A DNA stretch of 61,132 bases, the filler included, from Sphacelaria rigidula (taxonomy: Eukaryota): the NCBI GenBank assembly GCA_964200075.2. It is 10 parts of 10 records of this genome, joined end to end, with 100 filler letters (N's around TTAATTAATTAA, not from the genome) between each part and the next. Parts side by side here need not be neighbours in the genome. Positions count along the whole stretch, not along the records: positions 12,249 to 18,271 come from CAXNAA020022730.1; 9 more parts are not named here. One strand, 5' to 3'. The notes under the pieces were generated by a model. It did no database searches. It had not been told where the DNA came from and worked only from the letters and a program-made list of their open reading frames with translations. Made by a program: the position numbers and the translations under genes. This document shows positions 3,851-61,132 of the stretch, piece by piece (the first letter of the stretch is position 1; each line of letters opens with the position of its first letter).

Positions 3851-5335
3851 ATATGCGGGAGGGGTGATACAGTCGAAGCGCTGAGCCATGTGCTGGCACA
3901 ACAGCGCCAGGCATCCACAATCCGGGGCACAAGCACAGCTGCACCCGGCGTGGCTTCAGTGACGCCCGGGACGGGGACTACGCCTGCGGCCGCACCGCCA
4001 CAACAGCAGCAGCCGCAGGCACAAGGGAGCACTGGTCAACCTCACGAGCACGGCCCCATCGGGCCGCAACAAGCTCAAGCTCAATCACAGCTTCAACAGC
4101 CACTGAGCGATCACGACTTCGCTAAAGTTAAACTTGCCGTGCGCGCACGCGACGAGCCGAAGCTGGCGGGCGTATCGCCGGCAACGGGCGCAGGAGCAGG
4201 CGCAGGCACCGGCGTCCAGACACCTCTTGGTTCGGCAGCTGACGCGGCGTCGCCTCAGGTGCCAAATACCACTAGCCCTGGTGTCGTTTGTTCGGCAGGA
4301 GCGGCAGCTGCCAGCAAGGGCAGCGATCACGGTAATGACAGCGACGGCCCCGGAATAGACCAGCGGTTATTCGCGCCAGTTCTGCGCGCGATACTCGCCG
4401 GGGAGGGTGACCATGTTCTCCGACGATCACTGCTGTGCCATCCATTCCTAAAGGGGGTCAAGACCGGGGGCAGCTCGGCATCCGCGGCAAGCCCTGGCTC
4501 CAAAGATCTGGGGACAGCCGACGCCAGGAAATCCGCTCCGAGCCCCCTCGGGGGCACCGGGAGCGGCAGCGGCCGACGGAAGGGAAGCAAGGGGTCGAAG
4601 GGGGGTAAGGCGAAGAAGCGGGACAGAGATAGAGATAAGGAATCAGGAGACTGGGGCCCTGCCGCCACCCGGGCGGCACAGGTCGGTCCGGCGTCGGCGT
4701 CGAAAGCCGAAAAGAAGCCGCTGAACGCGCCTCAAGAGGTGAGCCGGCTCGCCGAACTGGCGGCATCAGATGGCTCTCTGCAGTCCACCCTTGTGCTCGT
4801 CAAGACGCTTCTCTGTGCCGTGGACCCAGCCACATCTGGTGTGGATGAATCATCCCGTCGCTCGGCGTCCTCGGGACGACTAGGGCGTAGCAGCAGTCAA
4901 GGATCTACGACCTCCGGAGGCGCGACGACTGGTGGTGGTGGTGTTGGGAAGACTTCCTCGGCGACATCGATGGGGTTGTCCCCAGAACTTACTGTCAAGA
5001 CATCTCCCCTGCGGACTCTGGCGGGCAGGGGCCTGTCTGGGTGGTCCGACGTGTTGGAGTTACTTCGACGGGAGAAATATCGAGAAAGGATGGTGTCTCT
5101 TCGAGGAAGGCCAAGCCTGACCGTATGCTGCGGCAAGGCGGAAAATCGAGGGAGGTTGGAGGTGAAGGGGGAGGCGTCTGGAGTGGTGACGGGTGTGCAG
5201 GTGAAATATGTTGATCTAGAGGGTGCATGGGCGACGCGTGAAGGACGACCAGTGTGCATGGAGCATGCGTTTTGTAATGAGCATTCCAATTGTGCTGAGT
5301 TCGCTTCCAAAAAGCGCACTGTGGACACGGGTTAG
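3851..5335 (+). CDS. Large exon of an unknown protein (low-complexity Ala/Gly/Ser/Gln tracts alternating with ordered segments; Cys/His-rich end)
   Basis: ~1.48-kb open frame, GC-rich relative to its flanks; acceptor cccacccctag|ATA at 3850/3851; possible donor G|gttagg at 5330/5331 or stop at 5333-5335. Confidence 0.8.
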   Translation: MCGRGDTVEALSHVLAQQRQASTIRGTSTAAPGVASVTPGTGTTPAAAPPQQQQPQAQGSTGQPHEHGPIGPQQAQAQSQLQQPLSDHDFAKVKLAVRARDEPKLAGVSPATGAGAGAGTGVQTPLGSAADAASPQVPNTTSPGVVCSAGAAAASKGSDHGNDSDGPGIDQRLFAPVLRAILAGEGDHVLRRSLLCHPFLKGVKTGGSSASAASPGSKDLGTADARKSAPSPLGGTGSGSGRRKGSKGSKGGKAKKRDRDRDKESGDWGPAATRAAQVGPASASKAEKKPLNAPQEVSRLAELAASDGSLQSTLVLVKTLLCAVDPATSGVDESSRRSASSGRLGRSSSQGSTTSGGATTGGGGVGKTSSATSMGLSPELTVKTSPLRTLAGRGLSGWSDVLELLRREKYRERMVSLRGRPSLTVCCGKAENRGRLEVKGEASGVVTGVQVKYVDLEGAWATREGRPVCMEHAFCNEHSNCAEFASKKRTVDTG

Positions 5336-6024: not shown

Positions 6025-6124
6025 NNNNNNNNNNNNNNNNNNNNNNNNNNNNNNNNNNNNNNNNNNNNTTAATTAATTAANNNNNNNNNNNNNNNNNNNN
6101 NNNNNNNNNNNNNNNNNNNNNNNN
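6025..6124. other. Artificial contig linker (also 12149-12248, 18272-18371, 24395-24494, 30518-30617, 36641-36740, 42764-42863, 48887-48986, 55010-55109)
   Basis: Identical N44-TTAATTAATTAA-N44 spacer with stops in all six frames, separating 6023-6024-bp pieces. Confidence 0.99.
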
Positions 6125-8441
6125 CATCAGCGTATTATACTGCACTTTATATAGTGTTCATGACGGAGTCTTCATATTTCAAACCCATCAGCTGCGCCGC
6201 CAGACATGCCTGCAAACGATTGTGGCGTTCTCCAGTGCGACGAAAGTAAACGAGATGCTTCTTTTTCAAGCGGATTATACACTCCATATACTACGCCCTG
6301 GGCGCGGTGGTGCGCTGGAACACCAAGCGTGGTCGCCACCTATCGTCGTACAATGGAGCCCGCAAGGCACCCGCACCGAGCAACACCATGCACACCATCG
6401 AACGCGGGATATGATCACGTTCTCGACCTGCAACTTTTGCCGACGGTCCAGCCTTGAACATAGCTTTTCAGATATGCCGTGTGTTGGGCCGTAGGTCGTC
6501 CCTCTGGGGCGCCTCGCTCATGTGAACTACACCTATTTTGCGGATGATTCAAGCTGGTAATTTATACAAGGGTTCTTATATGCGAAAATCGGCGTACATT
6601 TGACTTTTTCTTATTTTTGGCGCAACACTGACAAGCACTGACAAGCGCTTGCACGACCGTGCTTCCTGAAGTGAGTGCCTCTACAGGCTATACCAAGATA
6701 GGTATCGCGCAGATGACATCATCCAAAGTGTACCCAATACGGATCGATGCTCGTTTGCTGGGGCAGGAGCCACTGAGCAGGTCATGATGTGGAAGTGAGG
6801 GCATCTGCGTGTCCTTATATGCATTCACTGACGTCTCACACTGTCTGGACCAACGGGACTCCGTTTTGAGGGCGTATCGATGGCATTGCCTAAAATTCGT
6901 TTTCACTTCGTGCGTGTGGCGCACCACGTAAAACGTGTGGCCGATCCGGGAATATGCTGTCTATGTTGTGGTCTACCTCTGTGCCAATTTTCAGGCTTGT
7001 TCGTCCAGACACGGCGGAGAAATCCACAAGCAAAGTGACGCTTGACTTGTACTGAAAATACAGTACTAAGCCATCGAAAGATACATGAGGTGCGTACTCG
7101 GATGACTCTCCCTGTCATCCCTGTCACAAGGATATCCCTGCGCCTGTATTTCACAGGTTCATCCTACAGGTTGCATGATCACAGGGATTGCGGCACCCCC
7201 CTTTGTTGCTTTTACACACTTGACCCACAGTGGGGACGTTCGCCCACGTGTGTACCTTATTCAAGTCGTCAAAGGCTCACCGCACGGTCTTGTGTTTGGT
7301 GGTAACTAAGGTCAATAAGGCAATGAAGGCAATGTTCAACTGCATTGCTCTCATGCTCTCGTGACATTGGCGGCATAAGCGGTGTACTCGTGCTCCCAAA
7401 TAAACGAGAACCCGACGAAGAAAAACACGGGGGGAAAATACCCCGCCAACAAACATCCTGCTGCTTGAAGTTTTTCATAACTTGGGAAAGCTTTTGTGGT
7501 TCGGGATCGACACCCCGCAAAAAGGAGCCAGTGCGGGCGACTTTCGATGGCCACAACACGCGCCACAGGTATCAGATGACACCCAAACCTGAACGGTAAT
7601 GTACCGCTGCGCCTCCTTCGTGTACTGCACAAAAAAGTGTGTGATGAGATGTCTTCCCGCCAGAGAAAACTTGACAAAAGTGGTGAAAAAAGCGAAATGA
7701 TATATATATATATATATACATTTCTTGGATCTTCAACTCTGTAGCTGGCGCAATTCATTCGTGCGCATGCATGGTAAATTTATTGCTTGTCGCACACGAC
7801 AAAACATGAGCGTCAGCTGATTTCATGCAGCCGTACAAGGTCTATCCAGTCGTGGTCACAGAAAACGTGCACCTCGTCACTATGTCACTTTGTACCCGAG
7901 GGAAGTCAACGGAAGCCCTCGCTACAGTACAGCTACATTAAACTCGAGGAGGGACACACATCAAGAAGATACAGCAGAGTAAATTGAACACGAGAATAGA
8001 GGAGAGGGAATAAAATGAACCGAAAACTGAGGAAGAAGAAAGGCGCCAGGCTAAGATCGTCATTGGACACAGCACAGCACAGCACAACACACTAGTAAGA
8101 GTACCAGTGATACTGCTTCCGAGAGGAGCTGAAAAAAGCAGCAGTCAGCAGTATCTTCTCCATGGCATGACAAGGAGGCTTTGCGACAAAAACTGAACAA
8201 AACAGAACGGAGCAACCAAGGTGGATACAGCAGCTTGCGATTGCGACTGAGCTATTTGGGGGCCATTGCAGTTGGGCAGGAACATTCACCCGCGAGCTCT
8301 GCAGGAGCGAGACACAAACACTGGTACTATTGTAACACAAAAAATGAGCGACCATGACGAGAGGAAGAAGAGAAGGGAAGAAGAAATAATCCGACACATT
8401 GATGTTTTGATTTCTGGCGAACTGTGTCTCAACCCCTGCAG

Positions 8442-8625
8442 GTACAACGACAAGCGAACACCGTCGTGGACAGATCGAATATTGTGGCGAGGATTCAGCC
8501 CGAGCGAAGACGATCGACGAGAAAAGCTGTTGCCGCCACCCCCATCATCCCAGGCGGCATTCGCTTCTGTGCCTGCAGTCATCGTATCCGATCATGAACC
8601 TGTATACTGCTTGCTGGAGCTTTGA
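8442..8625 (+). CDS. Terminal exon of an inositol polyphosphate 5-phosphatase (IPPc)
   Basis: ccctgcag acceptor; YNDKRTPSWTDRILWRG...SDHEPVY matches the IPPc motifs R.PSW[CT]DRILW and SDH.PV; TGA at 8623-8625. Confidence 0.9.
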
Positions 8626-11600: not shown

Positions 11601-12248
11601 TATCGTGATTCACCTTCTTTCTTTGTCCATCCAACAATACGTATCGTTTCGTACTAACCCTCTTGGGACTGGGCCTCCAGAACGACCAACTAGGCTGGTC
11701 GGGAATGAAGTGTCCTGCATATGCATGAAACAGCGGCTTCATGTTGCTAAAAATCAACTTATGTATGTAACGGCAGGGTTAGATGAAGACCGAAAATTTC
11801 GTCCGTCTATTTTCAGGTACAAACTGTCTGTACTATAATTCGGGTGTTGTGCGCATCAGGCAATGTACAGATGATCAGTCGCGGTGGAGAGCTTTCAACA
11901 GGATGTGGCAACCGCCGCCCGCCACTTGTGGCCTTGGATATTGTCCCCATCACCTTGCCACACAGCCCTTTGTGGTCGGGGTGGGCCTCGATTTCCCTCT
12001 TTGTTGCAAGCGGCAAATTCTCTTCGAACGACATGGGTGTTGCGCCGCAGATACAGTACAGTACAGTGCAGCACGCTTTTCCGATTCAGCAGCAGCTGCC
12101 GCTGCATACTCCCTCACATGTTCTGGGCAATTCTCCGCGACAGAGATCNNNNNNNNNNNNNNNNNNNNNNNNNNNNNNNNNNNNNNNNNNNNTTAATTAA
12201 TTAANNNNNNNNNNNNNNNNNNNNNNNNNNNNNNNNNNNNNNNNNNNN

Positions 12249-12302
12249 AAAATTTCGAGCAACAAATGGCCCAAAATACCTCCCCCCATCGTAGGATGAC
12301 TC
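12249..12302. mobile_element. MITE end related to the GAG-TIR family; second copy at 18372-18428
   Basis: Both contigs start AAAATTTCGAGCAACAAATG...CCCCYATCGTWGGATGRCTC, similar to CCCCTACCGTAGCATCACTC. Confidence 0.65.
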
Positions 12303-12944
12303 CGCATTGAATTAAATTACACGCGCGAAGAGCGTTATGTTCGAGCAGCACGCGCGTAAGCGTTTTCCTTGTTGTCGGCATCGTGCCAGCGCGCTTGTGC
12401 ACTAAAGCGCTGTACTTCCCTGTGGTAGCCCGTCACGGTAGTGCTCCTCATGTTTCATCACGCTTTATTCGAAAACACGCAGGAGAGATGCCAGCGAGTC
12501 CATCATTGTTGCATTTGTAGGTGTGTTGAACCAGTTGTTTTTCGATACAACCCCCGCACGCTGCGTGTTGCACCAAATAGTATACCGTACCAGTTCAAAA
12601 ACGGATACTGTATGCATTACATATACGCCACCGACATGCTCTGGTTATAATGAACTGTGTACGAGGCGCGGGAAGCGTAACTTTATTCAAGGAATGCAAG
12701 GGCGCAGCCATACCGCAGTACACGCAGTATGAAACACGTGATCCGAACGAGACACGAGGCGAAAAAATTACATGATGATGAATACCTGGGCGTTTTGGTA
12801 CTGAAACGAATCCACCAATCCCTCCACTACCTACCGTACTAAGATAGCAAGGGTTCGACGAATCAGTTATTCGTCCGGAAATTAAGTAAGTTAAGTGCAA
12901 CTGATTCGTACCGTACGAATCAACCCTTAGGCTTTGTTTCCAGC

Positions 12945-13115
12945 GTTGCAACCCAGGTACGCGTAGCCCAGGCACGTGGAATGGCGCAAAAGTTGCATGG
13001 AAACCTGTTTCTGTGACCAGCGATCGACGTTTTTCTTTTTTTCGGTCAGGCCTAAAAAATCGTGGATTTGGTGATTCGAATCGGCGATGATTCTTCCGAA
13101 CCGTGGAAAATAGAC
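12945..13115. repeat. Interspersed repeat, unclassified; second copy at 36741-36910
   Basis: Colinear match GTTGCAACCCAGGTAC...CACGTGGAATGG.GCAAAAGTTGC...GACCAGCGATC. Confidence 0.75.
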
Positions 13116-13409
13116 ACCACGTGTAAATTACAAAATAAGTTACGGGCAAACCTTTTGACTGTAGAGTAGAAGGGCCCAACCGAGACCACTCCGGTTTCAC
13201 CGCCGAAATCCGAGACGGCAACGTTACAAACATCAAAATAAATATAAATTGAAAGCACCCGGGACACAGGGCAATCTATTAAGACAAACGCAATTCAATT
13301 TTATCGTTGCACCAAACGAAGTCGTGCTTCTGTCTCCGAAGCAGTGTGCCCACACAACCGCAAATAACAGTCATGAGCACACATTGTTCATGCCGGGTAG
13401 CATGCTACT

Positions 13410-14085
13410 ACGCAACGACTCGGAATCGCCTCTCTACATCACACCACTTCAATAGCATACAACCCAAATCTGGCACATGCTCAAGAAAAGCGTATTGGAG
13501 TCACCTTTCCGTACCGCAGCACGACAACACCATCCAAGTCTCGCCCAAACTCGATACAAACCGCGTTGGAGCCCTCACGAGATCACAGCACTATAAAACA
13601 TGCCCCGTGGCATGAACTCGCGACACATTGCGTCGGAATCACCTCGCGACCCCACAGCACTACCGTACAAATCCAGTGGCAAAAACTCGCGAATAATCGC
13701 GTTGGAATCACCTAGCGATCCCACAGCACTAGATCACAATCCCAGTCTAGCCAAAACTCGAACAAAGCGCGCTAGAGTCACGTCTCGACATCATAGCATG
13801 ACTATAAACTCGAAACATATCGCGTTGGAGTCACATCACTACACCACGGCACTAAATTACAAATCCACGTCCGGCACACACTCAAGACGAACCATGTCGG
13901 CCGCTTCTCGATACCACAGCTCTACAGAACAAATTCAAGTCTGGCACAAACTCCTGTCGAACTACGTCGTAGTTGCCTCGCGAAACGGCAGCACTACCGT
14001 ACGAATCCATGCTCGGCACAATCGCGAGGAAAGACGTCTGGCAGTCGCCTCTCGACATCACAACACTACAATTACAAACACGGGA
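13410..14085. repeat. Degenerate ~69-bp minisatellite, about 10 units
   Basis: Recurring CACAGCACTA...AAACTCG...CGCGTTGGARTCAC (e.g. 13653 and 13722). Confidence 0.7.
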
Positions 14086-14915
14086 AACCTAATACATAAA
14101 GTCGGCGCTTCCGATACATCAGATAGTCATCGCCGAGATGCTCAACTATCCTTCACTTCAAACACAATTCTTCACCAAATGTGGCACCGTCTCCGATTCC
14201 TGTCCCCCCACTCCCGTCGCTCTGATACACTGCCCACTCACCCCTGCCCCAGACCTTATGTTCCGTACCTCCTATGAAAGGTACCCCGCGGGGTGTCGTG
14301 CTACACACAGAAGCGCTGAAAAAAAACTTCAACTCCACCCCGTGGTGGTACCTTCGAAATCGAAGTGTTCCGTCGTCCTATCCTACGGAAAGAAACACGG
14401 AACAAAACTCGATAGTACCTTCTCTGTGTCCTACGTTTGTCTGCACCATATGCTGGTGCACTTCGAGGCCTTCGTACACGCGCCATACTATGAAACAGCA
14501 AGCAAAACAATAAAAACTGGAAACACACTAATCCATCGTGTAACAACCCACTTTAGAAGCCGCGGTACTCGCATCGAGTCCCGATACTGTACAGTAAGAT
14601 AAGCACAAAGTAGAAGAGTTCCACTTCACTCTGTAACGGTGTACTTCGAAGCCGAGGCCCCCGCGGGATGCCATGCGAAACACAGGAGAATTGAATTGAA
14701 ACTCCAACACCACCCCGTCATGGTATCTTCAAAATCGAACTGCTCCGTCATCTTATCCTACGGAAATTAAAACTGGACGGAAATAATAATACCTCCCTTG
14801 TGCCCTATCCTTGTCTGCTTCATGTCAGCTGTCAACGCTACCCATGCGTGCAAAAGGGTGGAGCAAGCGCTAATACGGGTCGCAAAGAACCATCACGCCC
14901 TCCCCCCATCCCTCC

Positions 14916-15000
14916 ATGCTCCGTCTCGAAAGGGATGCGTGGTCAATGGGCAAACGACTAAGGCAAGCAACAAATGAGTACGCCCCCCCCCCCCCCCCCC
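14916..15000 (+). mobile_element. 5'-truncated LINE family A copy with poly(C) tail and 14-bp TSD
   Basis: Matches the 3' end of the RT-bearing element in contig 10; C18 run at 14983-15000; CCCCCCATCCCTCC at 14902-14915 and 14995-15008. Confidence 0.9.
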
Positions 15001-15639
15001 ATCCCTCCGTCCAAAATTCTAGATAAGACAAGCTATTTGAATATGCAGGGGGAACACATATCTTCTGATAGACGAGGTATTATCAAGGGCCGACTCCATC
15101 GATTCATCGCGTACCCTTTGTCCCATTCCTACCCACCGCACAACTTGAGCAAAACGCCACAGATCAGGATGGCTTCAACCACGGCATTTTCGAAAAACAA
15201 TGCCGCGAAAGAATCACTGACGTCATCCTCACGGCACCCCGAAAAGTGTCGAAAACACAAGTACAAAATGAAAGTATGTATATAAATATATTACCCCCGT
15301 CCATTCTTCAAGGTCTGACTTGTATTTTGTTGCTCGAATGCTTCTTACGTCGTGACTTTCAGGAGAGGACATTTTCGCACAAACGTCGATCACGTTCACA
15401 CACGACACGAGCGACCCTCAGAACAGATAAACTCACTTCTATATATAATAAAGGAGCAAGTCGCGTAGACTCCCTTACCCCAGTACCTTCCGGGCTCGCA
15501 ACTAAACAAATATGGAAAATCAAGAACTCGATTGACTTCGATTCGCAGCTGTCTCCCGCAGAATATCACCGATTGTACGCATCTGAATCATTACAGCAGC
15601 ATCATTCGCCTAGGCAACACCAATGCAGACTAGACTGGA

Positions 15640-15750
15640 CTAGACTAGAGATGAGTATTGCTCTTCCTCATCGCTGGAGTTGTCCTCAGCAAATGCCAGA
15701 GACGCCTCCTTGTACGGCACCTTCGTTACTTCCTGCGTTGAAGTTTCGTG
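15640..15750 (-). CDS. Terminal exon of an unknown Ser/Arg-rich protein (HETSTQEV...QYSSLV*)
   Basis: Strong (CT)n polypyrimidine tract then cag acceptor; phase 0, compatible with the upstream exons. Confidence 0.65.
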   Translation of the reverse strand, partial: HETSTQEVTKVPYKEASLAFAEDNSSDEEEQYSSLV

Positions 15751-16605
15751 CTGGGTGAAACAAGAGAGAGAGAAAGAGAGAGAACGCGATCGTGGGTGAC
15801 CCCCGTTAGAGAGAAGATAGAACTCGGGTGTCGCGGCGCCCGTCGAGGGTACTAATGAGAATAGAGAAGTGGAACACGCACCCACACAACACCGCCCGCA
15901 CAGGAACCTCTGGGGATAGAGGAGATTGGGGGAATGGGGGCGTGCGTGCCGCTGATGGTCGAAGAATACGGACAGCACCGTATCTCCTTAGTGGAGCAAC
16001 GGCCTAACCCCGGTGAAGATACGTCGAAAGGATGCAATGGAATACCACCGGCAGTGTACGGGAGCGAGGATAGTATCTTTCAGCATGTTACTGTCGACAA
16101 ATTCACGCCAGAGTACATATAGTTCATTGTTGGAGGGCATCCCGGGGGGCACAATATCACTTCCATCCGTCGATGGCAAGCTGTGGCCTTCGAGGATGTA
16201 ATGCGCCCATTGATGAAACAAAAACTCGACCACACTGCACACATGCAGCATGTGCAACTAACGTACCGGCCCTTGAGCTCCCCACGTTGGGATGGGCAAA
16301 CGCGGCGATATCTTCTCCAAGCGTTTGATGCCTTTCTCGGCCACAGTCTGTGTCGCGCGACAAAAGCAGAGAAGTAAGAAGCAAGAAAAAGTAGCAACAT
16401 CTATTAATCCAAGAAGTTGCTTTTGTTTCTGGCAGAGCGCATCGACGGGCGTGACACGGTTGGGAGCCAGCAGTAACAAAAGCAGCAGCAAAAACTAAGG
16501 ACAACAGCAGCGACCATCGCAATACATGTTCCGGAGGTTCTGGAGCCCATGAACTCCATCATCACGAACAACGTGAACACCACATCCACTGCGCCCAAGA
16601 CACAC

Positions 16606-16980
16606 CTTCCGGCTCAACGCCGCCTTGAGCGTGGTCGTCGGCCTCCTGTTGTCGTGCGGCCTGTTGGACAAGAAAATTACTTCCTCTCCGGAGAGAAGTC
16701 TCGACAAAGATCGCCCCCTGTTGGACAAGAACATCCTTTCCTTTCCGGAACCCGAACGATCGCTGCTGTTCGACGCCAGCAGAACCTGGTCTGCCGAAGC
16801 CTGCCTCCCTATGGGCGGTCTCTCTAGTTCTGGCGGAAGCCGTAACCTTACCCTCTCCCTGTCGACCCCCGATCCAGAGCTATAGTTGCTCCGTGGCGGA
16901 GAAAGGGATGATGACCTGGGGGTCATGCGGGTGGACGAGCCGGGACCAGTTTCCGAAGCGCGTCTGGAATGGGAGATGTC
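16606..16980 (-). CDS. Internal exon, same unknown gene (DISHSRRASE...AALSRK)
   Basis: gacag|GAC acceptor, AAG|gtgtgt donor; 375 nt open, phase 0-0. Confidence 0.7.
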
Positions 16981-17493
16981 CTGTCACGATATGAAGACGA
17001 GTGAGGACATGAGCAAAACAAAACATGTAGGGTAAGTTCAAGCAATTTTCGAGCACCACAGTCGATGTGTACGCTGTTGCCAAATGTTGGAGTAGTAACG
17101 TCGAGGAGGGGAGATTTTTCGATTACGCACCAGATGTGCGATTTAGGCTGCGTGGGGTGCATACGAGTTGTACGAAGGCGTGGAACGTTTATTCTTTACT
17201 GGATTGAAAGCGAGCGCTGTCAAACAAATGGTCAACAACAAGTTCCGTCCAACAAGCGCGATTATCAGGTCAGCTGTGCTTCTTGGTGGAAAATCCAAAA
17301 TGGGAAGGGTAAAAACGGGTAAGAGCAAAGCAGCACACAATTCGAAACGACTGCAAAGATATGTCAGAAGGAACAACAATTGAAGAGGATACCCATACGG
17401 CACATTCCACAATGCATAAGAGAGATCCACGCAACGCTTCGAAACAATAATAGTAACACACCGAACAACCAACAATGTACAAACAGCACTTAC

Positions 17494-17760
17494 TCTCGGC
17501 ACGCTACCCGGACCAACTCCCGAAACGGTAGAGGGGCCTCGGGATGCAGCCTCAGACATGGTAGGCCCATGAGACGACATGGGGGATGGCCCGCCTAGCT
17601 GCGTCTGCCAGCCAGGCGACGGCACGTCGGATGACTTGGCCGTGGAGGCACTGAACCGTCTGCGCTGCTGAGCACGGTGATCGCTGAACTCTGGCGAAAT
17701 CAGTCCCAGGGGGCTGGAATGTTGCGCCGTTTTCTCTTTCGGGTGAACGACGTTCTGGAC
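17494..17760 (-). CDS. Internal exon, same unknown gene (VQNVVHPK...GSVPR)
   Basis: acacag|GTC acceptor, AGA|gtaagt donor; 267 nt open, phase 0-0. Confidence 0.7.
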
Positions 17761-18203
17761 CTGTGTATTTGCGTTATACTCGGATGAAGTTGCGTTCACG
17801 TCGTAGACGATGACCGATACGTGTATGTGTGTATGTGTGCGCGCGCGCTTGTGCGGGTGATACCACTTGGAACGGATACATTTCCACGAGTGTCCGTCTA
17901 GGTGTCATCGTCTTTTTTTTACATAAACGACATCATGAGATGATTCTATATACTTCTCGGATAGAGGGTCACGATTTCAAATCTCGGCCCTCATTAACAG
18001 AACACAATACGAAAGTCTCTACCTTGTGCGGGCAACGAAAAGTCGTAGTGGTATAAATTGTGGGTTTGCAGAAAATTGGTGAGAACAAGAATAGCAAGCA
18101 CGCAAGGGTCATGGAGGAACAAAGGAACACGAATGGTCGTACCAGCGGGCGGGAACGGTTGCCTGTACAACCTTCTTTCCACCAAAAAACGCACGAAATT
18201 TAG

Positions 18204-18271
18204 AGGGGGTGTATTCACGATGATGCATGCCACAGTCATACGACGATTGACCTCGCATCCCTACAAAGCCG
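18204..18271 (-). mobile_element. LINE family B 3' end (contig-truncated)
   Basis: Reverse complement of TGTAGGGATGCGAGGTCAAT...GAATACACCCCC. Confidence 0.75.
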
Positions 18272-18722
18272 NNNNNNNNNNNNNNNNNNNNNNNNNNNNN
18301 NNNNNNNNNNNNNNNTTAATTAATTAANNNNNNNNNNNNNNNNNNNNNNNNNNNNNNNNNNNNNNNNNNNNCAAAATTTCGAGCAACAAATGCCCCAAAA
18401 TACCCCCACCCCTATCGTTGGATGGCTCATGAGGTATATTTCGACATAAGTTTAGTGATAAAAACAAGTTTATATTTTTCGTCTTCTTTCTTCATCAGCT
18501 TCGTCTACGCCTTACCTCTCTAACGAAGCCAACCATAGGATGATCGTCAACGTTGAAATACCCAAACGATTAAACGCCCATGAGGACCATTACTTTTGGC
18601 TCAGAGGAAGTAATTCATCAATCGATCGAAGAATTACACCCACATCCTTGCCCCGCAGGCTTCATGAAACCACCCTGCTGTCGCTACGGTGCAGCGCGGT
18701 TAATCTCGTGCGTCAGACTCAC

Positions 18723-22387: not shown

Positions 22388-22787
22388 GGGGGGGCGTACT
22401 CATTTGTTGCTTGCCTTAGTCGTTTGACCATTGACCACGCATCCCTTTCGAGACGNNNNNNNNNNTCTTTGTCTCCCTTTCGAGACGGAGCACCGTTCCG
22501 ACTCCTAGTAGAGACACCTCCGACATTCCGGCGCTCATTCCGTTTCTCCCGTAGCTCATTACGTTTCTTTCATACATTACACAAAACGTTTTACATAGCT
22601 TATCCCCGTCCTGTTTCGCCGTCTCTGGCCACCATCTATCCTCTACTGTAGTTTAGCCATCGTTTTCTCCCTACTGTCTGGTGAGGAGGGGGGGGGGGGG
22701 GGGAGACGTACTTATTTGTTGCTCGCCATAGTCGTTTGACCAATGACCACGCATCTCTTCCGAGACGGAGCATCGCAACCGGCACCG
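22388..22787 (-). mobile_element. Two tandem 5'-truncated LINE family A copies, each with a G-run (poly(C) on the element strand)
   Basis: 22395-22680 aligns with the contig-10 element 3' region; second copy at ~22688-22775; flanked by CGACCAGCTG(AA)GGGGG on both sides. Confidence 0.85.
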
Positions 22788-22994
22788 CGACCAGCTGGGG
22801 GAGGCATTACTTTATCTTCTGTTTCTTGGACGTCCCTTCCTTATTATTATTATATTTTGTTTTGGAGTCTCGAGAGAAGCTGCTCAATAAGCCATTCTAT
22901 CTCATGTAAGGATTAGTGGTGACGGTAGTGGGACGGTGAGTCTATGTGTGTGACCATGGGTTCGAGAGATCGGGCTAATGTGCGGATGATAAAT

Positions 22995-23148
22995 ACCACC
23001 ACCACCACTGCTACCACTACCACTACCACTACTACTACTGCAGCTACTGCTACTATTACTACTACTGCTGCTGCTGCTACTGCTGCTACTGCTGCTACTG
23101 CTACTGCTACTGCTACTGCTACTGCTACTGCTACTGCTCCTGCTACTG

Positions 23149-23199
<51 letters not shown>

Positions 23200-23240
23200 T
23201 TACTACTACTACTACTACTACTACCACCATCATCACCACC
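22995..23240. repeat. Compound (ACT)n/(GCT)n/(ACC)n microsatellite
   Basis: ~245 bp of trinucleotide repeats. Confidence 0.95.
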
Positions 23241-23539
23241 GAGGAAATCAAGTCGTCACCTTTTCCGGCGAGGCGCACAGGTATGCAGTTGGTTGATTAG
23301 TTTAGTGATTGATGATCGACTAATTTATGGGTTGACTGCCCTGATATATTGTTGCACATGAAATGGCTCGCGGCGAGTCCGGCCGTGGCCACAAACAGAT
23401 AGACGTATCCAGGTTCAATGCACGGAAACGCTCGCCAAAGGAAACTCTTGGAAGGAAGAACACGAAAAAGGAGAGGACACAACAAAAAAGCAAATCGTAT
23501 ACGAGCTGGGCCAGCCGAGAAGCGATCCTGCAGTTTGCA

Positions 23540-30517: not shown

Positions 30518-32346
30518 NNNNNNNNNNNNNNNNNNNNNNNNNNNNNNNNNNNNNNNNNNNNTTAATTAATTAANNNNNNNNNNNNNNNNNNNNNNNNNNN
30601 NNNNNNNNNNNNNNNNNGGTGTCTTTCCGTGTTCGTCGCGGGCTGTGGGGGGGGGGGGGGGGGGGGGGCGGGGGGGGGGGGGGTGGGGGTGTGGGGGTTG
30701 TTATCGCGCGTGGGGGTATTTTTTTTCCTGGGGCAATATCACGTCATCCCCTGTTTATTTTGCACCTGGTACAAATGATGTGCGGAACACATACAGGTGG
30801 TGGCCTGATCAAGAACCGCGTTATTCGCATTCTTCCTGAAGCGCGCTTATATTCCCGATATTTTGGAGAGAGCCTAAATTTCCGAACAGAGGAAGTAAAA
30901 GGAAGCTCCCGCTCCCAAGCAGCGGATTATCACTAAAACATGCTGGCGAGGTGGCCAAGATAGCTGCTTCTAGCAGCATGCACACGCAAATACATACACA
31001 CACACCAAGGCAAATCCTTTTTTATCAGGAGAAAAACGCAATCGAAAGGATTTGCTTTCCCCGCACGATATTGGCTGCTGGCTTTCTCTCTCTTGCGATG
31101 AACCTCCCCCCTACCCAACTAACCTTTGTTGTAGGATTGCCGTGTACATCCAGAGTGCAAATACCTCCAATTGCTCTGTTACCGCTCAGGCTCCCTCCGC
31201 GGTTTTGGCGGGATATTAGGCCGAACTAATATTGTGGACACGTCAATAACGGCGGGTGGGCAGGGCGCAGGGGGTGGGTGATAGTTTAAGAGGCGGACAT
31301 CTCGCGGAGCTTGTCTACTGCGAGCACGGTTGATGAAGAGATGACCCCAACGATTCACGAAGATGTGGCGAGGACAAGCGGCTTGTGGTGAATGCTGTGG
31401 CATAGGGAAGTGCGGTACATGGGACTAGGGAAGGTGTTGTCGAGTTCGGGGCTCGAATATCTGATTGTGTGATGTGCTTCATGATGATGGGGTGATGGAT
31501 ATGCACAGTACATCGAGATCACGCAAAAAATAAAACCTGTGAACCGAAGGAGTCAAAGCTCAACAAATACGCCCTGCGGTTTAGCAATAGCGAGGTAGCA
31601 TTTTGATTAATTGAGTTAATCCACTAGCTGACACGCGGCCGTGATCACAAGATTCGTCCACTTGATACATAGGTGGATACCGAAAACACTTAGTGGGGGG
31701 AAACTGGAGAAAAACATCAAAGGGGAAAAGTCACACAAAGTAAACCGACAGAGGCGTCAGCCCATGGTGATGTTCTCAATTTATTCCACTGTGCGAACTG
31801 GTGGCAGTGATGCGGTTGCGCACAGTTTCAAGCGAGATGCAAGCGTTTAAAGAAAACACACGGACAACCACCACACACACACACACATACACACACCGCA
31901 CGCCTCCATCATTTGCAACGTAAACAATGGCTCGCGCAAAGATAACTCTATTATCACGTTAACCGGTCATCCAACATTCTGTCCACGCCTCCATCATTTA
32001 CACATGTGCTCGTTTGCTAATGCCCGACGTACGGGGGTTCAATTCAAGCACCCGGCGTACATGTGTTGTTGTCTGCTTCTTCGCTCGCAACGCCGATTTT
32101 GGGCGTTAACTGGCGAAAGGGACCTTCTACGCTTCCCTGAAAAAATACATGCTTTGGTAGAACATTGTCGAGCTCTTCACAGGGCCACCTATTCCACTTC
32201 TTAAATCCATGGCATTAAAGGCAATTTTGTACCCTCACACACTTTCCCCCTCCCTCTCCCCTTTGCCTTCGGGCCGCGTCTGTTGTCTCAAGCAATCAAC
32301 GCAGCCTCCGTCAGTACCTGTCTTGCACTTCTTTCATCCAACAATA

Positions 32347-32747: not shown

Positions 32748-33142
32748 ACTGTCATCGAAATGTTTAGTCAACGTTCGTTTTGTAATGCCCAAGGACGACG
32801 GACTCCAGAAAACTGGGTAATTTACACTCAACGTGACATGGCGGTTAATTTTTTTTCGCGGACAGATTCGAGGCAAAGCGAAATGTATTCGAGGATGACC
32901 TTTCGATGACGTGAAAATATCACTCTCAAGACAAGAAGAGCCACTTGGATACATGCGATACTCCTTCACCCCCCCCCCCCCCCCCCCCCGCCGGGCCCCG
33001 GCAGGGGCGAACCCCGCGCGCCCCCTGCCCCCCCCCCGCGGGGGGGGGGGNNNNNNNNNNTGGAAAATAACCCGCACAAAGACAAAAGAGCCGACGGGGT
33101 ACATGCAGTGCTCCTTGCACCCCCCCCCCCCCCCACCAGGTA

Positions 33143-33236
33143 GAGCCTGGTCCGGCGAAAACCCGGCGTGCTTCGTCCCGGCTTTGTAGGGATGCGAGGC
33201 CAATGGTCTTATGACTCATGCATGATCATCCCCCCC
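33143..33236 (+). mobile_element. 5'-truncated LINE family B copy with C-run and 15-bp TSD
   Basis: CCCCCCCACCAGGTA at 33128-33142 and 33230-33244. Confidence 0.9.
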
Positions 33237-33275
33237 ACCAGGTACACGCACAAACGCCACGCAAACACATATCAC

Positions 33276-36557: not shown

Positions 36558-36590
<33 letters not shown>

Positions 36591-37889: not shown

Positions 37890-37980
37890 CCCCCCCCCTC
37901 CCCCCAACAAAAAGCCACCTCCCCCTCCGGCCACTGGAAACCCCCGAATGTCTCCGGAAGGTCAGCCTGTGACACAGCTC
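37890..37980 (-). repeat. Unclassified G-rich interspersed repeat; second copy at ~48600-48690 (+)
   Basis: Shared GAGACAT....GGTTTCCAG.GG...GGGGAGGTGG.TTTT. Confidence 0.55.
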
Positions 37981-42179: not shown

Positions 42180-42568
42180 ATGTGTTGTGTGTGTTGTCGG
42201 CCCTTTTTTTTCTGGACGCCATTCTACCCCTTTCGGGATGTGTGGGCGCATCAGCCGGGGTCACACAGGAGGAAGGGCAACACAGGAGCTTTTTACCTTA
42301 TATTTGTTTTTAGTACCCCATCTTCCTTCTGCGGTGCTTGCCTTTTATTTATTTGCCTTTCATTGCTTTATTTTTTTATCGCGAGAGGGGTTCAGTAGTC
42401 CCTTTTCCTCGTCGACTGTGAAATGGAATTATTGTGTACCCACGACATAGTCGCTCTCCTCTGTTGAGCATGGTGTAAGAAAAACTCCCAGATCGCTTCG
42501 AGAATCGGACCCACAACTCAACCACCAGAAGGTCGCGAGGTTACCAACTGAGCCACCGGGGCGACCGG
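42180..42568 (-). mobile_element. tRNA-derived SINE, ~390 bp, (CA)n-like tail
   Basis: Head CCGGTCGCCCCGGTGGCTCAGTTGGTAACC (A box) with degenerate B box; colinear with 43092-43776 and 55110-55177. Confidence 0.85.
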
Positions 42569-43091: not shown

Positions 43092-43776
43092 TGTGTGTAT
43101 GTTGACGTCTCGTCCATTCTGGACGCCCGTCTACACCTTTCCGGTACATTATATAATATGTGGGCGCGCACCAGCCGGGGTCACACAAAATGAGGACGGC
43201 CAACACAGGAGTTTTTCTCTCTCTCTCTCTTGTTTGTTTTAATTCCCCATCTTCCTCCTGCGGTGCTTGTCTTTTACTCTATTTTTTATCGCGAGAGGTG
43301 TTCAGCAGTACCTTTCCCCCGTCGACCATCAAGTCGAATTTTGTGTTTCCCACGACATAGTAGCTGTCCATTTTTTATCGCAAGAGGGGTTCAGCAATCC
43401 CTTTCCCTCGTCGACCATTCTGTCGACCTTTGTGTACCCACAACATAGTCGCTCTCCACTGTTGGGGCATTGTGTGAGAAAAAATTCCAGATCGCTCCAA
43501 GATTCGAACCCACGACCCAACCGTCAGAGAAGGTGTCGAGGCCCATCAAGTCGAATTTTGTGTTCCCACGACACAGTCGCGGTCCATTTTTTATCGCGAG
43601 AGGGGTTCAGCAGTCCCTTTCCCTCGCGTCGACCTTTCTTTGTGTACCTTCAACATAGTCGCTCTCCATGTCAAGCATTGTGTGAGAAAAAATTCCAGCT
43701 CGCTCCGAGATTCGAACCCACGACCCAACCGTCAGAAGGTGTGAAGGTTACCAACTGGGCCACCGGGGCGACCGGC
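43092..43776 (-). mobile_element. tRNA-derived SINE with internal tandem duplications
   Basis: A box TGGCCCAGTTGG, B box GGTTCGAATCT (present twice, at ~43500 and ~43710); body segment repeated three times. Confidence 0.85.
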
Positions 43777-48684: not shown

Positions 48685-48886
48685 TGGGGGGGAGGCGTAC
48701 TTATGTTTTGCTTGGTTTTGAGGGGGGGCGCAGGTGTACTCATGATCATGCAGGCCATAGTCATAAGATCATGGACCTCGCGTCCCTGCAAAGGACGGAG
48801 CACGCCGGGTTTTTGCAGGACCAGGCTCGCACTCAATCACCAAGCGCGAAGCGCCGTGGTGTGTTCGGCGAGTCGTATGAAGGGTG
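48685..48886 (-). mobile_element. Very short LINE family A 3' end (48685-48713) next to a LINE family B 3' end (48722-48886)
   Basis: G-run + GCGTACTTATGTTTTGCTT flanked by GGTTTT(T)GAGGG; then G-run + GTGTACTCATGATCATGCAGGCCATAGTCATAAG. Confidence 0.75.
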
Positions 48887-53129: not shown

Positions 53130-53366
53130 CCTCAAGAATGCCTTAAATTTAGCGTCCACGATGGTCGACCCCCACGGCCCGCCGGTCGGCTCTTCGACCT
53201 CCTTCAGCTCCAATGGTGAAGCTTTGATTACTTCGTGAGCAGTAATATCTATGGTCCCCCCCCCACAGTCCAAGACCATCACCTGAGTACCTTCCTCCCA
53301 GGGCTGGGCATCGTCTGCTTCGACCGAAAGACAGGCAGCTTCTGGCTCCAGACATAGAGTCAGCCT
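53130..53366 (-). CDS. HSPA12-like Hsp70 exon 2
   Basis: LCLEPEAA and VMVLDCGGGTIDIT actin-like ATPase motifs, GGPWGSTIVDAKF; tttcag acceptor, gtgagc donor; 237 nt, phase 0-0. Confidence 0.92.
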
Positions 53367-54901: not shown

Positions 54902-55009
54902 GGGGTGGGGGAGGGGGGGGGGGGGCGTACTCATTTGTTGCTCGCCTTAGTCGTGTGACCATTGACCCCCCATCCCTTTCAAGACGGAGCACCTTTCCTA
55001 CTTTAAATA
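54902..55009 (-). mobile_element. LINE family A 3' end with G-run (contig-truncated)
   Basis: G-rich run then CGTACTCATTTGTTGCTCGCCTTAGTCG. Confidence 0.85.
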
Positions 55010-55109: not shown

Positions 55110-55177
55110 AATCGAACCCCCCAACTCAACCATCAGAAGGTTACGGGGTTACCAACTGAGCCACCGGGGCGACCGGC
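55110..55177 (-). mobile_element. tRNA-derived SINE head
   Basis: GCCGGTCGCCCCGGTGGCTCAGTTGGTAACC...GGTTCGATT. Confidence 0.8.
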
Positions 55178-55179
55178 TA

Positions 55180-55468
55180 CTGAATCAAACGATTCTATGC
55201 CATCTTTGTTCACGTCCCGCATATCCCCCTCTAGCACGTCCCGTTTCTCCTTGTGTAGTTCATATTCCACCACGATATGAGTTCTACTCTCTATTGCTTT
55301 GCCACAGGAGCAATTCTGTGCACCACTTCCTCCTCCTCTCGACTACCGGCATATCTCCTTCTTTCTGGCAGGTCCAGGTCACCCACCCGATATCGCAGTT
55401 TCAAATTATTCGCCGCGTCCATGGAGCCATGCAGATATGTTTTCATCCCTATACCCTTCCTCAACACT
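55180..55468 (-). mobile_element. LINE family A internal fragment (C-terminal zinc-knuckle region)
   Basis: MKTYLHGSMD...LRYRVGDLDLPERR...CSCGKAIESRTHIV; colinear with ~56555-56815. Confidence 0.8.
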
Positions 55469-55507
55469 CAGGAGGGATGGGAGGGATCTTCATTTGTTGC
55501 TTTCCTT

Positions 55508-56333
55508 CAAGGGCAGGTCGACTAGGATATGTACTTTTGAATACTCGGGTTAAATACCCGGGTATTTTCTCTACCCAATGTTTGAGTAGATTGAGTCGCT
55601 CTCAATACTCCTACCCAAATTTTGGGTAGATTGGGTACGACTTCAACGACTCCGCACAACGTTTGGGGGTATTGAGCACAACTCCAAATACTCTACGCAA
55701 TATTGGATAAGCACTCTTCGCAATACCTGGGGATAGAGAATCACTTGGGTATGACCTCAATACTTTACCCAATTTTGGGGTAGATTGGGTATGATCTCAA
55801 ATACTCAGCCCAAATTCTGGGTAGATGGAGTACGACCTCAAATGCTTTACCCAATACTGGGTAAGAACTCCCAGTAATACTTGAGTAGAGTATCACTTGG
55901 GTATGACTTCAATACTAAACCCCCAAAATGGGTAGATTGAGTAGGTACGCTGTAATACTTGAGTGTAGATTATCACTCGGGCATGAGCTCCATACTCGAT
56001 TAGAAATTTGGGTAGATTGAGAATCACCTCAAATCGTTTGCCCAAATTTTTGGTAGATTGGGTACGGTCTCAAACATTCTACCCAAATTTTGGTTACGAA
56101 GACCAACTCTTGTGGAAGCGTTTATAATTTAATTTTGCAATAATTTTAAACGACATTTTTTTTCTTTGCCGTAGTTGTGTATTTTGTGCCCGTTCACCAT
56201 ATGACAAAGAAAAAAAAAACTCCTCTGAAATTGTTGCAAAATAAAATTTCAAACGCTCCCATAAGAATTGGCGCAAGAGTATGACTTTGAAAAAATACCG
56301 AGTATCGGGTACACCTTACCTGACCTGCCCTTG
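55508..56333. mobile_element. 826-bp hAT-like non-autonomous element with an internal ~40-bp tandem array, inserted in the LINE 3' end
   Basis: 12-bp TIR CAAGGGCAGGTC/GACCTGCCCTTG; flanks CTTTCCTT and CTTGCCTA each differ by one base from the LINE consensus CTTGCCTT (8-bp TSD); repeated TTGGGTAGATTGGGTA...CAAATACT. Confidence 0.8.
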
Positions 56334-58378
56334 CTTGCCTAAGTCGTTTGATCATTGACCGCCCATCCCTGTCGAGACGGAGAGACGTTCCTACTCCGAA
56401 TAGAGACACATCCAACATCTTGGCACTCATCATGTTTCCTCCATACATTACAGAACACCTTTCACATATCTGATCCCCGTCCTGTTTCGCCTTCTGTGGT
56501 TCTCTGTCTCCCAGTATGGCCATCGTTTTCTCCTTACTGTCTACTGCATCAAACGAGTTCGTGTCACCGTTCACTTTCCACATTCCCCCCTCTACCACGA
56601 CCCGTTCCTCCTTGTATGGTTCACATGCTGCCACTATATGAGTTCTACTCTCTAAAGCCTCGCCACAGGGGCAATTATGGGCTCTACTTCCTCCTCCGCT
56701 CCACTACTGCCATATCTCTTGTTTCTGGTAGGTCCAGGCCCCCCGCCGGGAATCAAAATTTCGATCGTTTCGGGCCATGCAGTCATGTTTTCATACTTAT
56801 TCCCTTTCTCAACTCGCCATACATTTTCAGGTGTTCTTCCTCGTCTACTTCCGGTCTGACCGCTTATTTTCCCCTTACTTCCATCATGCCTCCTGCTTTT
56901 ATCTTGTACCCCCCGCCTTCACCTATGGACACTATCTGGTCTTGGTTTCTCATTTCCTTCAATACTTTCTCGACTACGCGCTATCCCACCTTATTCCAAA
57001 CTGCCCTTTCGTCATTTTCTTCCATACAGCCTTATCAACTATGGCTGGCGATTTCTTTCTCTGTATGTTCTCAACGCTATGTTGTCATTTGAATTTTGTC
57101 ATGTCTCCGTTTGTTTGAGATGGGTGCATCTACAATCATGCTCTAAATACTATATTACTTGTGATTTTGAGCACTCACGTATTTCCTCAGCTGCTGTCAC
57201 CTGTACTGTTTCCAAGTTCTTCACCAACTTCGCGCCCCTTTCTCGTACTTCTCCTGCATATACCAGCCTCGGTACGATCACGCTCATCAAGATACATCTC
57301 TTCATCTTAGTATCTACAGGCGACTCTCTGAGGATCACGTCCAATCTGCCTATCTGTACCTTCCCCTTTCCCATCACTTTATTCACGTGTGCATCCCAAG
57401 AACAGTTTCCTTAGATCTCTACGCCAAGGTATGTATACTAGTCCACGATCGGCAATTCCTCTTCTCCCCACTTCCGTTTGAACTCTACCGGGCTCTTCTG
57501 ATTGTCATTACACACAAGTACCGCATACTTGTTACGCTCGCTGTTACTCTCCATTTCCTAGTGTAATTTAGCGCCTTCTCTGTTGACTTTTGCAATGCTT
57601 CTGGTGTTTCTGATATCCCCACGAAATCAGCTCCGCACATCAATCCCGATACGGTATCTTCCCTCACCTTGACCCCTTGCTTTTCTGCTTATATTGCTCT
57701 CATCACATCATTAATAAATACCTCGACTGAAGTGGGCGATACCGTACATCCTCGAGCAACTCCTTGTGAGATATCGAACTACTTCGATATTTCTCGGTCT
57801 AGCACCATAACACTTTCCGCACATTCTGTCATCTTCACCATTCTCCACATATTTCTCCTAATGCCAGTCTCCAACACCTTTTTTCACAGCCCATTTCTCC
57901 ATACTATCATATGTTTTCTGCACGCCAAGACAGAAACAGTACGTTGTCAGTCCGGGGTCTTTTCTACCTTGAATAATTTTACCAAATGTGTACACATGGT
58001 CTACGCAACTACGGTTTGGTCTCAAACATGCTTGCCCCTCGCTGGTTTATCTTCTCTCGCATCGTTCCCACTCCATCATTCAGAGTGTTACAGAGTGCTT
58101 TCCCTACGGTACTCAGTTATCTCTCCATAATTCCCTGGGTCAGCCCTGTCTCCTTTCATTGAAAAGGTTGACTACTTCTCTTTCTCTCCACCTCTTGGGT
58201 GTGTACTCGTTCTCCCATATCCAGTAACACAGCAGAATCATCATGGTGATCATTCCCTCGCCCTCCCACTTAAGAAACCCGTTCATTATTTCGTTTGCCC
58301 CTGCCGCCTTCCTAGTTACACACTCCTTTACTTCCGCTCTTGTGCACTCTTCCCGCAATTCTGTTGAGTCAAGGGGGC
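56334..58378 (-). pseudogene. Decayed non-LTR retrotransposon ORF (reverse transcriptase + CCHC), RTE-X-like, family A
   Basis: Ordered RT motifs across stops/frameshifts: KAAGANEIMNGFLK, DPGNY, EGQACLRPNRSCVDH, VQKTYD, GVARGCTVSP, LMCGADFVG (eroded [YF]ADD), YTYLG, then CPCGEALESRTHIVAAC. Confidence 0.92.
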
Positions 58379-58929
58379 TCATATGGGAAATGGCGGCACC
58401 ACCCCACCCCTCCCCCGACCTGACGTTACTCCCATGATTTGGAATCCCACCCTTCCCCTTTGATAAGTTTGATTGATTGTCGCACTTCGGCTGACCTCCC
58501 AGGGGTCCAGCCATGGTAACATGATGGACATATCCTAACAAAAAATATTGAAACACTCGCTGAAGAAAAGGAGGCGAAAAAAAAACAGAAAAGGTAAAAA
58601 AGATCAACAGAGTATACTAAGAAAAGTAAGAAAGGACAGAAGAAAGAAAAAATGGAGAATGTCCGGCCTTTGCCACATGGTGTCGGTGGAAAAGGTTTGG
58701 CCGACAGGATATGTACAATCGAACCCGCCCCGTGCCGTACAGCACGGGGGCCATCAGTCTCGAAGCCCTCTGATGCTTGAACTGGAATACGCACTCGAGC
58801 GACACGCTCTCCCTCGCCCCCTGTAGCTCTCACACTTTCGAACGACCTGCGGTACACTTGAACTGACATACTTTTCTTGACCCAAACGGACGGAGGAGCG
58901 AACAAAACACGAAATACTTTTTCTGCACT

Positions 58930-61063: not shown

Positions 61064-61132
61064 GGGGGGAGGGGGTGTACTCATGATCATGCATGCCATA
61101 GTCATAAGACCATTGACCTCGCATCCCTACAA
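61064..61132 (-). mobile_element. LINE family B 3' end with C-rich tail
   Basis: Element strand: TTGTAGGGATGCGAGGTCAATGGTCTTATGACTATGGCATGCATGATCATGAGTACACCCCCTCCCCCC. Confidence 0.85.

Follow-up and report, generated by a model that had tools for sequence, protein, structure and literature searches.

A truncated, C-tailed LINE end within a C-led target-site duplication in the brown alga Sphacelaria rigidula

The stretch of DNA analyzed here (the window) comprises 61,132 nucleotides of the Sphacelaria rigidula genome in 10 unlinked pieces of ~6024 nt; distances across the spacers that join them are meaningless, and in several of the 10 pieces the start or end falls inside a repeat. In piece 3 (12249-18271), a short retrotransposon end lies at 14902-15008. 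When we re-read the letters, the sequence-only account of this site, a 67-bp truncated LINE 3' end followed by C18 and enclosed by a perfect 14-bp duplication, proved accurate in every position. The features of the window are collected in Table 1. The underlying assembly was made from short reads, which renders homopolymer lengths unreliable.

Table 1. Repeat ends, duplications, tails and neighboring features in the window
Feature	Position	Strand	Basis or remark
5' target-site duplication copy CCCCCCATCCCTCC, C6 + 8 nt	14902-14915	+	read directly, 14/14 identical to 14995-15008
5'-truncated 3' end of LINE family A, 67 nt	14916-14982	+	blastn to L029/L051, 94% identity; tblastn to L122 ORF residues 1364-1382, 95% (match 14918-14974)
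C18 run, (C)n tail (~12) merging with C6 of the 3' duplication copy	14983-15000	+	read directly
3' target-site duplication copy CCCCCCATCCCTCC	14995-15008	+	read directly
Transcribed region of host gene	13195-17763	-	X5 contigs
Pair of family A 3' fragments in tandem, enclosed by CCCCCAGCTGGTCG / CCCCCCCTTCAGCTGGTCG (imperfect duplication)	22388-22797	-	sequence comparison
First tandem fragment, ~85 nt + TCT-C16	22775-22688	-	
Second tandem fragment, ~300 nt + C7, N10 gap at 22456-22465	22683-22388	-	tblastn match 22640-22403
Family B fragment (33143-33229) + C7, perfect 15-bp duplication CCCCCCCACCAGGTA	33120-33244	+	
Family B 3' end (to 48735), CCTGCG-C7, TCAAAACC, 18-nt family A end with CCT-C7, ACCCTCAAAAACC	48686-48886	-	
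Family A 3' end, tail C13-T-C5-A-C4, body cut by piece end	54904-55009	-	
LINE copy complex: body, split 3' end, eroded tail CCCTCCCATCCCTCC (55484-55470), then second 5'-truncated copy (55464-55178)	55178-58409	-	
Frameshifted LINE body (RT + C-terminal part)	58409-56333	-	aligns to L122 ORF residues 670-1380 (blastn, tblastn)
~820-bp element with inverted ends GGGCAGGTC...GACCTGCCC, inside LINE 3' end	55504-56326	-	
Family B 3' end with C4	480-600	+	
Family B 3' end with C5, body cut by piece end	18205-18271	-	
Family B 3' end with C5-T-C6, body cut by piece end	61064-61132	-	
Nine spacers	6025-6124, 12149-12248, 18272-18371 and so on		N44-TTAATTAATTAA-N44

The focal fragment consists of the final 19 codons of a LINE reading frame, the stop codon TGA (14976-14978) and the five letters GTACG. 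Position 14916 is an A where family A has a G, which leaves 66 nt (14917-14982) matching the repeat; this A may be an untemplated base. The duplication reads C6-ATCCCTCC. If the last six Cs of the C18 run are counted with its second copy, the net tail amounts to ~12 Cs. Judged from the duplication rather than from an empty allele, the C6 of the 5' copy against the C18 on the 3' side indicates that the Cs came with the insertion and that this was not a case of pure targeting. The feature as a whole is a dead, severely 5'-truncated insertion of a brown-algal APE-type LINE. An 11-mer of the duplication, CCCATCCCTCC (14905-14915 and 14998-15008), recurs at 55471-55481, where the LINE copy that ends at 55470 has its eroded tail. 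The window contains it exactly three times, counting both duplication copies, and five times, against 0.86 expected, when one mismatch is allowed. The recurrence may be fortuitous, or C tails may commonly decay into this sequence.

The insertion sits in a transcribed gene. We aligned contigs of four public sequencing runs from three studies to piece 3; none of these runs is on record as RNA. Joints with CT..AC ends in contigs of run X5 (16347>16606 and 16979>17493) are spliced RNA of a minus-strand gene with two GT..AG introns, 16606-16347 and 17493-16979. Contigs of X5 also cover 13195-14942 and 15011-15750, that is, both flanks of the focal insertion, which places the insertion antisense within the transcribed region of the host gene, in a long terminal exon or UTR. 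RNA-like X5 contigs in which the element end is followed by Cs could be read-through transcripts or DNA. Among the contigs of the four runs, no joint skips the insertion and no empty allele was found; the insertion seems to be present in all four, and what the site looked like beforehand is deduced from the duplication alone.

To identify the repeat, we searched metagenome contigs for the pattern GGGATGCGWGGTCAATGG and found the element in 2 among the 119 loci listed (L029 and L051). Most of the other loci have a different source, as GGGATGCGTGGTCAATGG, an 18-mer of the LINE 3' end, doubles as a conserved coding motif (...MGCVVNGPGE...) of a widespread bacterial gene, which we take to be ispG-like; this match is a coincidence and not a relationship. 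Viral contigs scanned for the pattern gave no match, and prokaryote genome contigs gave a single one, L122. The bacterial metagenome-assembled genome that contains L122 holds only this copy, and the contig is evidently algal contamination.

L122 is a full-length copy with one stop-to-stop frame of 1382 codons. Its reverse transcriptase (RT) domain matches RVT_1 over residues 763-1012 (E 6.7e-32), and an endonuclease of the APE type is recognized by Exo_endo_phos (residues 193-415, E 8.1e-11) and Exo_endo_phos_2 (E 1.4e-07), together within residues 193-437. Among proteins of known structure, L1 ORF2p and R2 are distant matches to the frame, the RT of L1 ORF2p aligning with an E of ~1e-21 over ~330 residues. 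L029 carries a 681-residue frame that is open at its 5' end and also contains RVT_1 (Pfam, E 2.8e-33). In both copies the frame ends in AAA-TGA-GTACG, with the stop 5 nt before the C run, which reduces the 3' UTR to GTACG and (C)n. Public relatives with APE and RT domains are full-length at 1328-1360 residues, and an Ectocarpus protein has 71% identity to the L029 frame. Full-length elements have a single frame of ~1360-1380 codons with an AP-endonuclease, an RT and a C-terminal Cys/His motif. These domain matches identify the repeat as a genuine APE-type non-LTR retrotransposon. In keeping with this assignment, fragments of 18, 67, ~85, ~95, and ~300 nt share one 3' end, and there are no LTRs. 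Pfam detected no RT in the stop-to-stop ORFs of the window that reach 85 residues (137 scanned out of 214), because the LINE bodies there are frameshifted and come to light by blastn and tblastn only. The flanks of L122 have no word of at least 8 nt in common and hence no detectable duplication. Upstream of the L122 ORF (L122 ~4740-4840), a related element is represented by its 3' end, which is in inverted orientation and has a C-rich tail.

In a second family, B, only the last 35-64 nt can be aligned to family A (blastn), and tblastn shows no similarity to the L122 ORF. Its members are probably non-autonomous passengers which use the same 3' module and tail, as suggested by this restricted alignment.

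To see how general the tail is, we re-read the 11 family A and B 3' ends of the window (597, 14983, 18204, 22388, 22688, 33230, 48685, 48722, 54902, 55470, which is eroded, and 61064). The first 20 nt behind the element contain 12.5 Cs on average (minimum 7, n = 11), compared with 4.9 +/- 2.3 at ~20000 random places, and at least 12 Cs are present at 7 of the 11 ends but at only 0.7% of the random places. Within 24 nt of the element, a run of at least five Cs follows nine ends, the exceptions being 596 (C4) and the eroded 55470-55485. As directly behind the element were seen at none of the 11 ends and in none of the three copies outside the window, and poly(A) tails of the kind found in L1-like LINEs are therefore lacking from this set. 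All three outside copies are C-tailed (L029 C8, L051 C11GC5, L122 C13). The sequence-only reading had every intact A and B end run into Cs and none into As. This holds for the C-richness and for the absence of As, but four of the 11 tails are eroded or not flush with the element (among them TCT-C16, CCT-C7, and CCTGCG-C7). A consensus fold of the last ~75 nt (8 copies, one incomplete) was weak (-6.8 kcal/mol), with compensatory change in 0 of 18 pairs; the alignment does not support a conserved RNA fold there.

Long C/G runs are in general far too frequent in the window, with 82 overlapping matches to runs of at least 10 C/G against 0.10 expected. Several of the long runs have no upstream repeat that can be recognized within the window, namely C32 at 36558-36589, G22 and G14 at 30647-30683, and the runs at 37890-37905 and 53256-53264. 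The DNA upstream of the C/G runs at 1278, 25512, 30683, 36558, 37890, 39333, 42638, and 53256 did not match other repeats within the ~60-kb window, a sample too small to tell. At 32936-32989 and 33087-33134, two similar ends of ~33 nt (...GAGCC..ACATGC..CTCCTTSCA) run into C21 and C15, respectively. They may represent a third C-tailed retroposon family in tandem, with a GC-rich stretch and an N10 gap between its two members, although their similarity is below the length that blastn reports.

Could the C runs be sequencing or assembly artefacts, or ordinary C/G microsatellites that happen to adjoin the repeats? N10 gaps do occur at 22456 and 33051, where they adjoin G/C runs and two of the repeats, and no contig of the four runs spans 14942-15011, so that the length of the C18 run is without independent confirmation. 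Yet the junction between element and C run recurs in all four runs of the three studies, in two metagenome contigs and in the one bacterial-bin contig, all 11 ends of the window are C-rich, against a random expectation of 4.9 Cs in 20 nt, and (C)n is part of a published Ectocarpus repeat library (in its supplementary notes; PMC12477816). Taken together, we regard an artefact or chance association as extremely improbable.

The contigs of the four runs also indicate how the tails behave in other copies. In the 200-nt bin that contains the element, the summed word depth exceeds that of the unique flanks ~10^5-fold; this attests to a very abundant repeat but should not be read as a copy number. 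Behind 15000, the loose ends with the best support go on as Cs and derive from contigs of other copies. Those behind 14992-14999 begin mostly with T (in one row with G), and many then continue with more Cs. The tails are thus long, variable and interrupted. In 12 of the 12 rows listed, from a table with 533 further rows, a contig passes from a C run within 0-30 letters into a new copy that starts at 14911-14924; a joint that goes back 84 is present in 18, 2, and 19 contigs of runs X1, X3, and X4, respectively.

Duplications could be assessed for the four insertions that have both ends inside a piece. All four begin with C5-C7; two are perfect, at 14 and 15 bp, and two are imperfect. Besides the focal one, the perfect duplication at 33120-33244 reads C7-ACCAGGTA and is identical at 15 of 15 positions. 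The family A end at 48686-48721 lies between C7-TCAAAACC and C7-ACCC-TCAAAAACC, an imperfect duplication, and is a mini-insertion placed directly behind the C tail of a family B end. Such placement recurs, with a truncated copy within ~8 nt behind 3 of the 11 tails (22688 to 22683, 48722 to 48713, 55470 to 55464). The C15 at 33120-33134, upstream of the 33143 fragment, is itself the tail of another retroposon end and likewise has a truncated copy behind it. In the LINE copy at 55178-58409, the ~820-bp insert separates ...GGCAAGCAA from ...GCAACAAATGAAG and looks like a small DNA transposon or MITE.

An element that has no tail of its own and inserts precisely into existing C/G homopolymers, in the manner of microsatellite-specific LINEs, would also produce duplications that begin in a C run and copies that lie in older tails. 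At 33120-33244, moreover, the upstream C15 exceeds the downstream C7, and the 33230 copy, whose C7 tail does not exceed the C run of its duplication, shows no net gain of Cs. The focal site argues against such pure target specificity by its net gain of ~12 Cs, as do the 8-9 nt of unique sequence that follow the C run in the duplications and point to a short C5-C7 target instead of a long homopolymer. In addition, the curated Ectocarpus consensus, as annotated in supplementary notes, treats (C)n as part of the element (PMC12477816). We therefore consider targeting without a tail improbable.

The sequence-only reading knew of no described poly(C)-tailed LINE system, and the suspicion that there is none is not borne out. 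According to curators' notes in Supplementary Material 3 of a Genome Biol 2025 paper (PMC12477816), the Ectocarpus element RTEX-1_Ec32 (5867 bp) has a 'single EN-RT ORF; (C)n 3'' and a 'C-rich' TSD, and RTEX-2_Ec32 (5582 bp) has '(C)n termini/TSD'. The same notes list two non-autonomous elements, RTEX-N1_Ec32 (607 bp), which 'can be present in tandem' and has a 60-bp 3' end in common with RTEX-1/2, and RTEX-N2_Ec32 (188 bp); other entries of the library have different simple-repeat ends, RTE-1/2_Ec32 with (CAA)n and CRE-1_Ec32 with (CA)n (PMC12477816). The main text of the paper is silent on tail and mechanism, with zero occurrences each of 'C-rich' and 'homopolymer' (PMC12477816). Our literature search, which did not extend to Repbase or Dfam, returned no other published account of C-tailed LINEs.

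The Sphacelaria element resembles these entries, as far as the curators describe them, in its brown-algal host, the single EN-RT frame, the (C)n 3' end (11 of 11 ends in the window and three of three outside copies), C-led duplications (four of four), tandem copies, and a non-autonomous partner, family B, with only the last ~60 bp in common (PMC12477816). It is thus most likely of the RTE-X kind, a placement that follows the curators' descriptions. The two differ in their hosts, the Sphacelaria exon at 8251-8622 being only 40-60% identical to Ectocarpales proteins. Its closest matches are from Pylaiella (60%), Scytosiphon, and Ectocarpus, and this protein comparison indicates a brown alga that is not closely related to the sequenced Ectocarpales. 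The C-tail habit is consequently already on record, in the supplementary notes, for Ectocarpus RTE-X LINEs, and the Sphacelaria element extends it to another brown alga.

Several better-known systems share parts of this behavior. In mammalian L1, the duplications start with As because the T run at the nick (TTTT/AA) pairs with poly(A). The Sphacelaria element is like L1 in having an APE endonuclease and an RT, in traits of target-primed reverse transcription such as 5' truncation, and in duplications of ~14-15 bp led by the letter of the tail; it differs in its C tail, its single frame without an ORF1, its 5-nt 3' UTR and an RT that is only distantly similar. As the tail is C and not A, poly(A) polymerase cannot supply it. 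LINEs with simple-repeat tails include CR1, L2, I and the 'stringent' LINEs of the UnaL2 type. Like these and, on the curators' descriptions, RTE-1/2_Ec32 and CRE-1_Ec32, the Sphacelaria element has a short repeat as part of the element and a conserved 3' module in common with non-autonomous partners, and its very short 3' UTR recalls RTE. What sets it apart is a repeat unit of a single C, through which the tail doubles as the preferred target and gives rise to tail-into-tail arrays. Waldo, Mino, Kibi, Koshi, and Dong are microsatellite-specific LINEs of the R1 clade. In these, too, the insertion site and the tail of the element are the same simple repeat; in Sphacelaria, by contrast, the duplications reach 8-9 nt into unique DNA and short C5-C7 targets suffice.

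All things considered, the focal feature is probably best explained as a truncated brown-algal C-tailed LINE that used target-primed reverse transcription with pairing between a G run and (C)n. The endonuclease would nick the bottom strand 3' of a short G run, at approximately GGGGG/A. If the nick geometry is borrowed from L1, two sites read ~GGGGG/AGG, a position that cannot be placed within the homopolymer. With its 3'-OH freed, the G run would anneal to the (C)n that terminates the element RNA and prime reverse transcription, from which the enzyme would usually drop off early and leave a 5'-truncated copy. A cut of the top strand 13-15 nt downstream would then produce a duplication that is led by C5-C7 and merges with the tail. 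By analogy with L1, duplications led by Cs are to be expected when a G-run primer meets a (C)n template. The RNA tail, the position of the nick and tail renewal through slippage are inferred. Both the view of the repeat as a 5'-truncated LINE with a TSD and a (C)n tail and its description as the G/C mirror image of L1 go back to the sequence-only reading. The first is borne out by the APE and RT frame of L122 and by truncated copies with duplications, and the second stands as the best-supported reading, given the four C-led duplications and the C6 against C18 at the focal site, with the pairing step deduced from these.

The origin of the tail deserves separate consideration. Some retroelement reverse transcriptases add non-templated nucleotides at initiation, and the RT or another enzyme might similarly add Gs to the nicked target 3'-OH before copying, in which case the RNA would need no (C)n. 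The wide variation in tail length, from 4 to 18 in the window and longer in other copies, would suit such a process. It leaves the leading C5-C7 of the target in all four duplications unexplained, however, and tails such as TCT-C16 and CCTGCG-C7 look like inherited, mutated templates. Non-autonomous families, moreover, including those in the curators' notes, carry the tail within the conserved 3' module. Hence untemplated addition seems unlikely to us. The interrupted tails and the tail held in common with a non-autonomous family favor a templated tail over a newly added one. Under pairing of a G run with (C)n, the tail would most likely be templated by the C run of the donor copy, and slippage or the register of pairing would set the tail length anew, as is the case for other simple-repeat-tail LINEs. 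Every insertion would leave a new C run, later copies would often land in older tails, and head-to-tail arrays would result. A bolder and more doubtful version posits a true G-run nickase and an RT that, telomerase-like, slips repeatedly on a handful of template Cs and thereby restores (C)n, so that the element makes its own preferred target at each insertion. [quoted passage not shown]

C-tailed LINEs are rare and little known, and in the literature searched they appear only as supplementary-table notes for Ectocarpus. The window shows the habit in another brown alga, together with duplications led by a short C run and copies that pile into tails. No new category of mobile element is needed to accommodate it; rather, it offers a natural test of base pairing between tail and nick in target-primed reverse transcription without poly(A). 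The surplus of long C/G runs in brown-algal genomes, with the assembly gaps that result, may also be due to such LINEs.

Two further repeats accompany the LINE fragments. A module with a tRNA-like GGTTCGAATC-type motif is present at 55110-55170 (minus strand), 42468-42529, 43467-43528, and 43675-43736; ARAGORN found no tRNA gene in the window, and the module is at most a degenerate tRNA-derived repeat. Just upstream of the tandem LINE fragments, an array of ~9-nt units (20 copies in register) occupies 22967-23266.
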